From IMG/VR virus record IMGVR_UViG_3300044451_000174, positions 74,722 through 125,807 of that record: a DNA stretch of 51,086 bases; one strand, 5' to 3'. The notes beneath the pieces were generated by a model. It made no database searches. It was not told the DNA's origin and saw only the letters and a program-made list of their open reading frames with translations. The DNA is from a virus (Duplodnaviria > Heunggongvirae > Uroviricota > Caudoviricetes). The position numbers were made by a program, and so were the translations under genes. Shown in pieces: positions 46,167-46,436 of the stretch (positions within the stretch are counted from its first letter, which is position 1; each line of letters starts with the position of its first letter).

Positions 46167-46436
46167 TCACCAGTTCCAATCGTCATCGAGATCGCGGAAC
46201 CGGGGTGGCGGTTCAATAACCACTGCGGGTTCGACCGGCTGTGACGGGCCGGGGTCGAGTACCACAGGGGTTTGAGTCAACGGTACTTGCGGTGCATAGA
46301 AGTAGCCGCAGTCTCGGAGGTCGTCGGCTGTGACGCCTGCAAGAATTCCTTTGAACGCCCCAGAAGACACTGTTTTGCCAGACGCTGTTGCCACGGGATC
46401 TCGCTTTCGCATACGACGATGATCATCGCCGCACAC
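46167..46436 (-). CDS. Small protein carrying a copy of the MCP C-terminal motif (start GTG 46436 or ATG 46412, or a frameshift continuation of the upstream ORF)
   Basis: DCGYFYAPQVPLTQTPVVLDP versus MCP DSGYFYCPYVPLTQTPVVLDP. Confidence 0.7.
   Translation of the reverse strand: MCGDDHRRMRKRDPVATASGKTVSSGAFKGILAGVTADDLRDCGYFYAPQVPLTQTPVVLDPGPSQPVEPAVVIEPPPRFRDLDDDWNW

Follow-up and report, generated by a model that had tools for sequence, protein, structure and literature searches.

A conserved mini-protein gene in a phage with a T4-like head module carries a selected copy of the P-domain strand and P loop of the major capsid protein and is a possible head-assembly accessory

In shells built on the HK97 fold, the E loop of a subunit overlies the P domain of its neighbour. 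In T4, whose gp23 and gp24 (PF07068) have this fold, the P loops of three adjacent capsomers meet at quasi-threefold axes, and Fang et al. regard these contacts as anchor points retained through expansion (PMC9546572). The head-length mutations T457A, R460C and G461S lie in the P loop of gp23 (Fang et al., PMC9546572). The T4 P loop is among the few sites where single mutations alter head length, and size control and correct closure are an open problem for very large phage capsids. Mimicry in capsid assembly is known from satellites: the SaPI protein CpmB copies the end of the helper scaffold that binds the major capsid protein (MCP). Capsid-targeting peptides are represented by the cargo-loading peptides of encapsulins. 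MCPs also trigger host defences, as in Lit/Gol and CapRel, and in gp23 the Gol peptide is found close to the N terminus, away from the P loop. The CTS carried by T4 internal proteins is N-terminal and cleaved (PMC9026906). Avs7 and Dsr1 are further documented MCP-sensing defences, and Avs-type sensors recognise whole folds via extended interfaces (bioRxiv 10.64898/2026.01.04.697583).

Here we describe a mini-protein gene, B, and its upstream neighbour, gene A, in a 51,086-nucleotide stretch of DNA (the whole stretch that was analysed, hereafter the window), which is the 3'-terminal part (51 kb) of an IMG/VR contig of 125.8 kb with a completeness estimate of 25%. The comparison set consists of metagenomic contigs throughout. 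The window holds a T4-like head module with terminase, an intein-containing portal, an S77 prohead protease, a scaffold-like gene and a gp23-family MCP. In the 852-aa portal gene (24011-26569, plus strand) the intein-splicing domain occupies aa 154-334, and the MCP gene is immediately followed, on the other strand, by a gene for a J-domain (DnaJ) protein with a Pro-rich region (35195-35794, minus strand). The MCP shares 83% identity with its counterpart in the uncultured phage LR756511.1 (595 kb) and 96% with the one in the 261-kb IMG/VR contig G001, and the C-terminal 155 aa of the MCP of contig L026 are near-identical to those of the window. Set against a gene A identity of only 58% between window and G001, and mini-proteins of G001 and L026 that are also markedly divergent, these values point to an unusually conserved MCP.

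The preliminary description of this DNA had reported that 18 out of 21 residues encoded at 46313-46251 on the minus strand (DCGYFYAPQVPLTQTPVVLDP) are identical to residues encoded at 34765-34827 on the plus strand, within the MCP gene (DSGYFYCPYVPLTQTPVVLDP). This identity was reproduced, as was, exactly, the use of different synonymous codons in 12 of the 18 identical residues; over the 21 codons, 43 of 63 bases are identical. When the phage's own 125.8-kb record was searched in six frames with the mini ORF, the MCP was recovered with an E-value of 4.8e-10 (61% over aa 30-65), and the reverse search, from MCP to mini ORF, gave 1.1e-8; judged from these alignments, the likeness between B and the MCP is not due to chance. 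The similarity spans about 32 residues rather than 21 (ILAGVTADDLRD... in B, ILLGYKGDSYMD... in the MCP), and the upstream flank, which had been called unrelated to the MCP, therefore has a part in the similarity; relatives have LLGYKGQSLFDSGYFYCPY at this place. The acidic downstream end, earlier thought to look disordered, is not a random tail but a conserved motif, R-(S/T/D)-(L/I)-D-D-x-W. Nearby MCP remnants had been named as a sign of a decaying second capsid gene, and searches of the record in both directions found no further ones flanking B, which argues against such decay.

The resident MCP aligns to solved T4 gp23 structures (phmmer), and the mapping of the motif onto gp23 identifies the copied segment as P-domain strand and P loop: gp23 437-464 (VGYKG...YAPYVALT457PLR460G461SDP) is the counterpart of B residues 12-40. 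Within B, the segment I9-P40 opens with a short strand and a loop, continues into the long P-domain strand GYFYAPQVPLTQ and closes with TPVVLDP, which is the first half of the P loop. In an AF2 model, the resident MCP has a strand at 438-448, a loop at 449-459 and a second strand at 460-472, and its E-loop hairpin lies at 260-279. Columns that are invariant among MCPs (G437, Y438, P442, P445, T449 and P450) coincide with conserved residues of the mini-protein family (G22, Y23, P27, P30, T34 and P35), which suggests that the B peptide is subject to the same local structural constraints, or adopts the same conformation. B residues 9-40 are thus homologous to the P-domain strand and P loop of gp23 and gp24, with the same invariant columns. 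Unlike these proteins, B has only about 32 of about 490 residues, lacks the A domain, spine helix, E loop and insertion domain, and possesses a tail that MCPs lack. With its main domains absent, it cannot form the HK97 fold, for which the resident MCP model uses about 490 aa; in the 67 aa of B, only aa 9-40 align (with MCP aa 424-455). Against Pfam Gp23 (PF07068) it scores 15.3 bits (E 0.013), below the cut-off of 24.4, over profile positions 302-338, or 37 of 376. An uncontrolled complex prediction for MCP and B gave no answer (score 0.00) and carries no weight either way on binding.

The limits of gene B had originally been set at 46167-46436 (89 aa), an ORF that lies in the -1 frame of the well conserved gene A and overlaps it. 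We compared a clade of 11 sequences, DNA having been fetched for ten relatives, and the two-frame A-B layout is present in all of them. The GTG at 46436 is not conserved, whereas an RTG is found at the same aligned B codon in 11/11 sequences (GTG in eight, ATG in three), exactly over an invariant Cys codon of gene A. In the two closest relatives, L005 and L009, stop codons 10-11 codons upstream leave this RTG as the sole possible start. Because of these stops and the lack of conservation at 46436, the GTG at 46370 is the likelier start, and the product of gene B is likely a protein of 67 aa (46370-46167). The stop codon of gene A is formed out of B's conserved Leu-Thr codons. The RTG is not preceded by a GGAG-like Shine-Dalgarno sequence in the window, nor can one be seen in the junctions of the relatives, unlike most genes checked in the window, which do have one; this absence is the main weakness of a model in which B has its own start. 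As far as the sequences go, B has two attributes of an independent overlapping gene, a conserved start and purifying selection, and lacks a third, a ribosome-binding site; its translation probably starts independently, at the conserved RTG. The features of the locus are collected in Table 1. The hairpin at the end of the A-B unit starts at B's last codon and spans its stop codon, and L004 has a comparable hairpin, with a U-run, after its B gene. Right after this terminator lies a small Cys/Gly-rich ORF (window 45873-46124, minus strand; MGEFKEWLKNEESCGTMGCPGHP...), conserved in L004 (MGDFKDWLKTEESCGTMGCPGHP...).

Table 1. Features of the A-B locus and of the resident MCP gene (window coordinates).
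Feature	Position	Strand	Basis
Gene B, mini-protein, likely 67 aa, GTG at 46370 to TGA at 46169-46167	46167..46370	-	Conserved RTG, selection
MCP-derived segment of B, I9-P40	46251..46346	-	Matches MCP aa 424-455
Pro/acidic linker of B, G41-F58, length and sequence variable among relatives	46197..46250	-	Alignments
Conserved tail of B, RDLDDDWNW	46170..46196	-	R59 invariant, W65 nearly so across 36 family members
A-B overlap, 94 nt; A frame 0, B frame -1	46277..46370	-	Clade alignment
Strong terminator-like hairpin, 3' end of A-B unit	46135..46170	-	-26.8 kcal/mol, z = -5.8
Gene A, 131 aa	46277..46672	-	Helical domain aa 3-104; 12 homologues
Sigma-70-like promoter match upstream of A: TTGACG, 17-nt spacer, TATCAT	46758..46786	-	Consensus scan 10/12, pattern match only
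LAGLIDADG_2 endonuclease-like gene, upstream of A	46834..47391	-	Pfam E 2.9e-10
MCP, gp23 family	33463-34935	+	Pfam Gp23 E 2.3e-87
MCP's own copy of the segment, aa 424-455	34732..34827	+	Alignments to B and T4 gp23

Selection on the two frames was assessed by pN/pS, with Nei-Gojobori estimates pooled across all pairs. For a block of 26 codons, roughly one half within the A-B overlap, pN/pS is 0.36 in the B frame, and the same bases give 1.12 when read in the A frame and 1.50 in the third frame. In the B frame, the ratio is 0.19 for the 16-codon core GY...V and 0.20, with pS saturated, for the 8-codon tail; for the helical domain of gene A it is 0.29. Differences in the 26-codon block number 295, 244 and 563 at B codon positions 1, 2 and 3. 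This codon-position pattern and the low ratios in the B frame argue that B is a coding sequence under purifying selection. The suggestion that the peptide is preserved by selection and is not a recent DNA duplicate is borne out by the same figures (0.19-0.36 in the B frame vs 1.1-1.5 in the other frames). By this measure the stretch of A that overlaps B is unconstrained, and the locus represents a conserved 94-nt gene overlap with selection on one frame only. The copied motif is kept by B in 10 of the 11 related contigs checked. The exception is L006 (3282-3446, plus strand), in which the GYFY...VVLDP core is deleted while the KGILHG start, the RTLDDEWDC end and an intact ORF are kept; either the P-loop motif is dispensable in at least one lineage, or this copy is decaying.

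The 12 homologues of gene A, of 119-132 aa, are conserved as far as an invariant C102-L103, where conservation collapses, and the last ~27 aa, which overlap B, are not conserved; among the 11 clade contigs the A proteins are 53-84% identical. The AF2 model consists of helices at aa 3-104 (pLDDT >90 for aa 20-100), followed by an unstructured part at aa 107-131 (pLDDT ~33). Searches of Pfam, PHROG and NCBIfam gave no match for the protein, and neither PDB nor BFVD returned a similar fold; the top BFVD entries were sigma-factor-like, at E > 1, and the ESM Atlas gave nothing usable for it. A relationship with T4 gp55 was considered and rejected, since hhalign assigned it a probability of 0.2%. 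The LAGLIDADG gene is found upstream of A in 9/9 relatives with annotated upstream DNA, a synteny that suggests a long-resident or domesticated copy; in more distant phages it is not beside B-family genes. An origin of B through homing-endonuclease activity was rejected, because the adjacency is limited to the window's clade and a DNA identity of 43/63 is too low for recent conversion. The window contains a second LAGLIDADG_2 endonuclease-like gene at 42827-43441 (minus strand).

B belongs to a wider family. A profile of nine B proteins, run against 1.84 billion representative proteins, gave 356 matches at E <= 1e-3. MCPs match the motif part of the profile only, whereas about 25 cluster representatives of 55-107 aa match both motif and tail and are standalone proteins. 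For the proposed database search for short GYFYxPxVPL ORFs without an HK97 fold, this profile search supplies about 25 further clusters. The common design starts with an optional YKDPL... stretch, followed by LMGYKG.S.MD.GYFYAPY(V/I)P(L/I)T(Q/S)TPVV and sometimes continuing through KGILTRYGKKLL, so that the longest members carry up to ~65 residues of the MCP C terminus, including the whole hairpin. After the MCP part come a variable linker, a basic patch and a (Y/H)RSI(D/T)DxW(E) tail, beyond which most members have 3-20 more residues. Many members start with ATG at or slightly upstream of MGYKG, and the family gene of L028 has its own upstream intergenic region; standalone members elsewhere show that B can exist alone. 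An in-frame A-B fusion was not found among profile matches of any length.

No family member was found in 50,697 cultured-phage records, and a DNA search of the A-B region against cultured phages gave no match. With the 89-aa ORF and the family member P0028 as queries, tblastn against cultured phages recovered MCP genes only, plus one small ORF of LR756511.1, and a pattern scan of IMG/VR with B found nothing. A limited search of the open-access literature yielded no description of MCP-fragment mini-proteins, and within that limited text the B family is apparently undescribed. Neither the family nor its common tail carries an annotation, and gene-calling programs split the B gene or assign it a wrong start.

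The tail also occurs on proteins other than P-loop copies. In L026, a close relative, a 78-aa protein (6455-6691, plus strand) encoded 170 nt downstream of the P-loop mini-gene copies MCP aa ~256-287 in its N-terminal part. This E-loop copy scores 34.6 bits against Pfam Gp23, above the cut-off, and ends HRTIDDDWSPSKL, with the same tail, HRTIDDDW, as the P-loop mini-protein. The tail is found again on a 138-aa protein encoded directly after the MCP gene of L026 (581-997, plus strand) and on a 98-aa protein of G001 (L033:1492-1788, minus strand) with an acidic N terminus and a basic C terminus; neither has MCP similarity. Several different proteins thus share the tail within one lineage, the distribution looked for in a shared docking peptide. 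Judged from these sequences, the tail is a module common to several proteins, and pieces of the MCP have been recruited repeatedly. Like the T4 CTS and the encapsulin cargo peptides, it is a short terminal peptide that follows a flexible linker on several unrelated small proteins, and two tail-bearing proteins are encoded within ~6 kb of the MCP gene; unlike them, it shows no sequence similarity to these peptides, and the putative docking tail is absent from T4. A tail profile had no match in T4 or LR756511.1, and no other tail-bearing protein was found in the 125-kb record. The idea that the tail is a sliding-clamp-binding end of the T4 type was discarded: SLDFLYEAND, the end of T4 gp55, and SLDFLFG, the end of gp43, resemble it only loosely, most members extend 3-20 residues past the tail, and no other protein of the 125-kb record has it.

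MCP pieces are also found on proteins with other partners. In LR756511.1, a 99-aa ORF (588014-588313; L015:1339-1638, plus strand) joins a CxxC...CxxC N-terminal region to a copy of MCP aa ~432-475 (YMDEGYYYCPNVP...ILTRYGKKLL) and has no RSIDDxW tail. P0041 and P0046 (147 and 161 aa) consist of a ~90-aa N-terminal domain without assigned identity and the C-terminal ~60 residues of the MCP, up to its natural end. Both, and the E-loop mini-protein, exceed the Gp23 cut-off, but over 39-56 positions only. Additional ORFs with other MCP parts in related genomes are G001:C1:200081-200509 (L019), G001:176238-176336 (L021), W01:306716-306949 (L017) and W01:196031-196390 (L016); one such ORF, of 210 aa, is 49% identical to MCP aa 107-255, the insertion-domain region. 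The sequences do not support a resemblance between T4 gp67 and gp23.

How might such a protein act? We favour, tentatively and with considerable reservation, the possibility that B is an accessory in head assembly and uses mimicry of the phage's own MCP to dock into lattice contacts. Its first module, the P-domain strand and P loop, would dock into the MCP lattice in place of a P loop, perhaps at positions left without a third capsomer, or by competing with one. The second module, composed of the basic patch and RSIDDxW tail after a flexible linker, would bind a shared head-assembly partner. B would then be a low-copy accessory or regulator and not a bulk component, and might act at portal-proximal quasi-threefold sites that have no third capsomer, in nucleation, or as a soluble brake. 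In the window's clade, gene A would have come to overlap the 5' end of B. The weak start signals (a GTG without Shine-Dalgarno sequence, within a translated ORF) fit a low-copy role. In L026, 5.5 kb separate the family gene from the MCP gene upstream of it, and in the window the distance between the two is 11 kb; in both cases the family gene is beside a T4-like head module.

Other observations count against a role in the lattice. An isolated strand and loop may not take the native conformation on its own, the core is missing in L006, and the complete and related 595-kb phage LR756511.1 has neither gene A nor the tail. Moreover, the neighbours of B (the LAGLIDADG gene, gene A and DUF5843) are not head genes, and B is encoded on the strand opposite to the head operon.

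SaPI CpmB offers a parallel to docking by mimicry, in that it too is a small protein with a copied capsid-assembly contact element, the engagement of the MCP by B being only proposed. In contrast to CpmB, B is phage-encoded, copies the MCP's own lattice loop and not the scaffold, and has no known effect on capsid size. If docking into lattice contacts is correct, a selected P-loop copy with an E-loop sibling would represent an assembly factor of a new kind, acting through self-mimicry, and a peptide of 30-60 residues could serve as a simple handle to probe or perturb HK97-fold lattices. A wider claim, about the family, is more doubtful: P-loop-hairpin and E-loop copies with a common tail, which would represent the two sides of the MCP-MCP contact, may be lattice-contact peptides of huge T4-like phages that steer or proof-read the assembly and geometry of very large capsids. 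They might, for instance, occupy contacts that stay unsatisfied at the portal vertex or fix the angles between capsomers, or may alternatively be immune decoys.

The same mapping onto the P loop would also suit a brake on assembly, or a chaperone-like cap, which we consider improbable. B, free in the cytoplasm, would cap the P-loop sites of the MCP, or occupy a chaperone or protease that handles unassembled MCP, and so keep the shell from growing too early or aberrantly before scaffold and portal are in place. This would be a variant of the favoured reading in which B never enters the head. T4 P-loop mutations that alter head length (PMC9546572) indicate that interference at this site can change assembly, and a J-domain protein is encoded beside the MCP gene. 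A monovalent competitor would need high abundance, however, which the start signals of B do not suggest, and the tail it has in common with unrelated proteins would be left unexplained.

A role outside assembly is also rather unlikely in our estimate, namely that B shows an MCP epitope to a capsid-sensing host defence and so titrates or blocks the sensor, as the preliminary description had suggested. Its premise is sound, since MCP pieces or folds are immune targets in Lit/Gol, CapRel and Avs7/Dsr1 (for Avs7 and Dsr1, bioRxiv 10.64898/2026.01.04.697583). Strong conservation of the MCP-like module while the remainder of B evolves fast would suit such a decoy, and the copying of at least two separate parts of the MCP within the family could likewise reflect a set of epitope decoys. 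A strand and loop of 32 aa could not, however, mimic the whole-fold interface that Avs-type sensors read, and the region copied in B differs from the Gol peptide. Presence of the tail on proteins without MCP similarity would go unexplained, and the translation signals look weak for a titrating protein. Moreover, the pieces copied are both long beta-hairpins of the fold, an indication of a role in the lattice, and the position of the E-loop hairpin over the neighbour's P domain likewise favours a lattice role over an immune-epitope role. No phage-encoded MCP-fragment decoy was found in the literature searched; were the B family to act in this way, its members would be the first of their kind.

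The textbook reading of the layout would be programmed -1 ribosomal frameshifting, with B as a C-terminal extension that tethers the A domain to the MCP-like segment and tail. In this respect, the locus resembles the -1 frameshift cassettes of the tail assembly chaperone G/GT and of dnaX, with a downstream -1 frame that overlaps the 3' end of the upstream gene, here by 94 nt in 11/11 contigs. It would account for an RTG that has no Shine-Dalgarno sequence, unlike most genes checked, and for a folded domain of A that stops exactly where B-frame conservation starts. We nevertheless regard a fusion as very unlikely. The A-B junction differs from those cassettes in having no conserved slippery heptamer or stimulatory structure, and its downstream part is a standalone gene elsewhere. 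A heptamer of the X XXY YYZ type is absent in 9 of the 11 sequences; in the two that have one, L006 and L010, it falls at different aligned positions of the variable linker, and L012 has not so much as a relaxed slip motif. Seven of the 11 have A AAG, which varies as a B-frame synonymous site. At the junction, the RNAalifold consensus amounts to -2.6 kcal/mol, with four pairs and no covariation, and the linker in which the shift must happen varies in length and sequence. Outside the clade, B-family genes stand alone with their own ATG, and the profile search contained no A-B fusion.

Finally, it is extremely improbable that B is a non-functional remnant, a decaying partial MCP duplicate or homing-endonuclease by-product whose ORF is open by chance: a LAGLIDADG gene lies upstream and L006 has lost the core motif, but the low pN/pS (0.19-0.36) is confined to the B frame, frame, start, motif and tail are kept across contigs whose A proteins are ~55% identical, the standalone family is wide, no MCP remnants flank B, and in L026 and L028 the family genes have no LAGLIDADG gene beside them.

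The window also carries three accessory genes that are unusual in a phage, which encode a papain-family C1 peptidase (36181-37086, plus strand), a circularly permuted YpsA SLOG protein (43459-44058, plus strand) and a class-III aminotransferase (48860-50161, plus strand).
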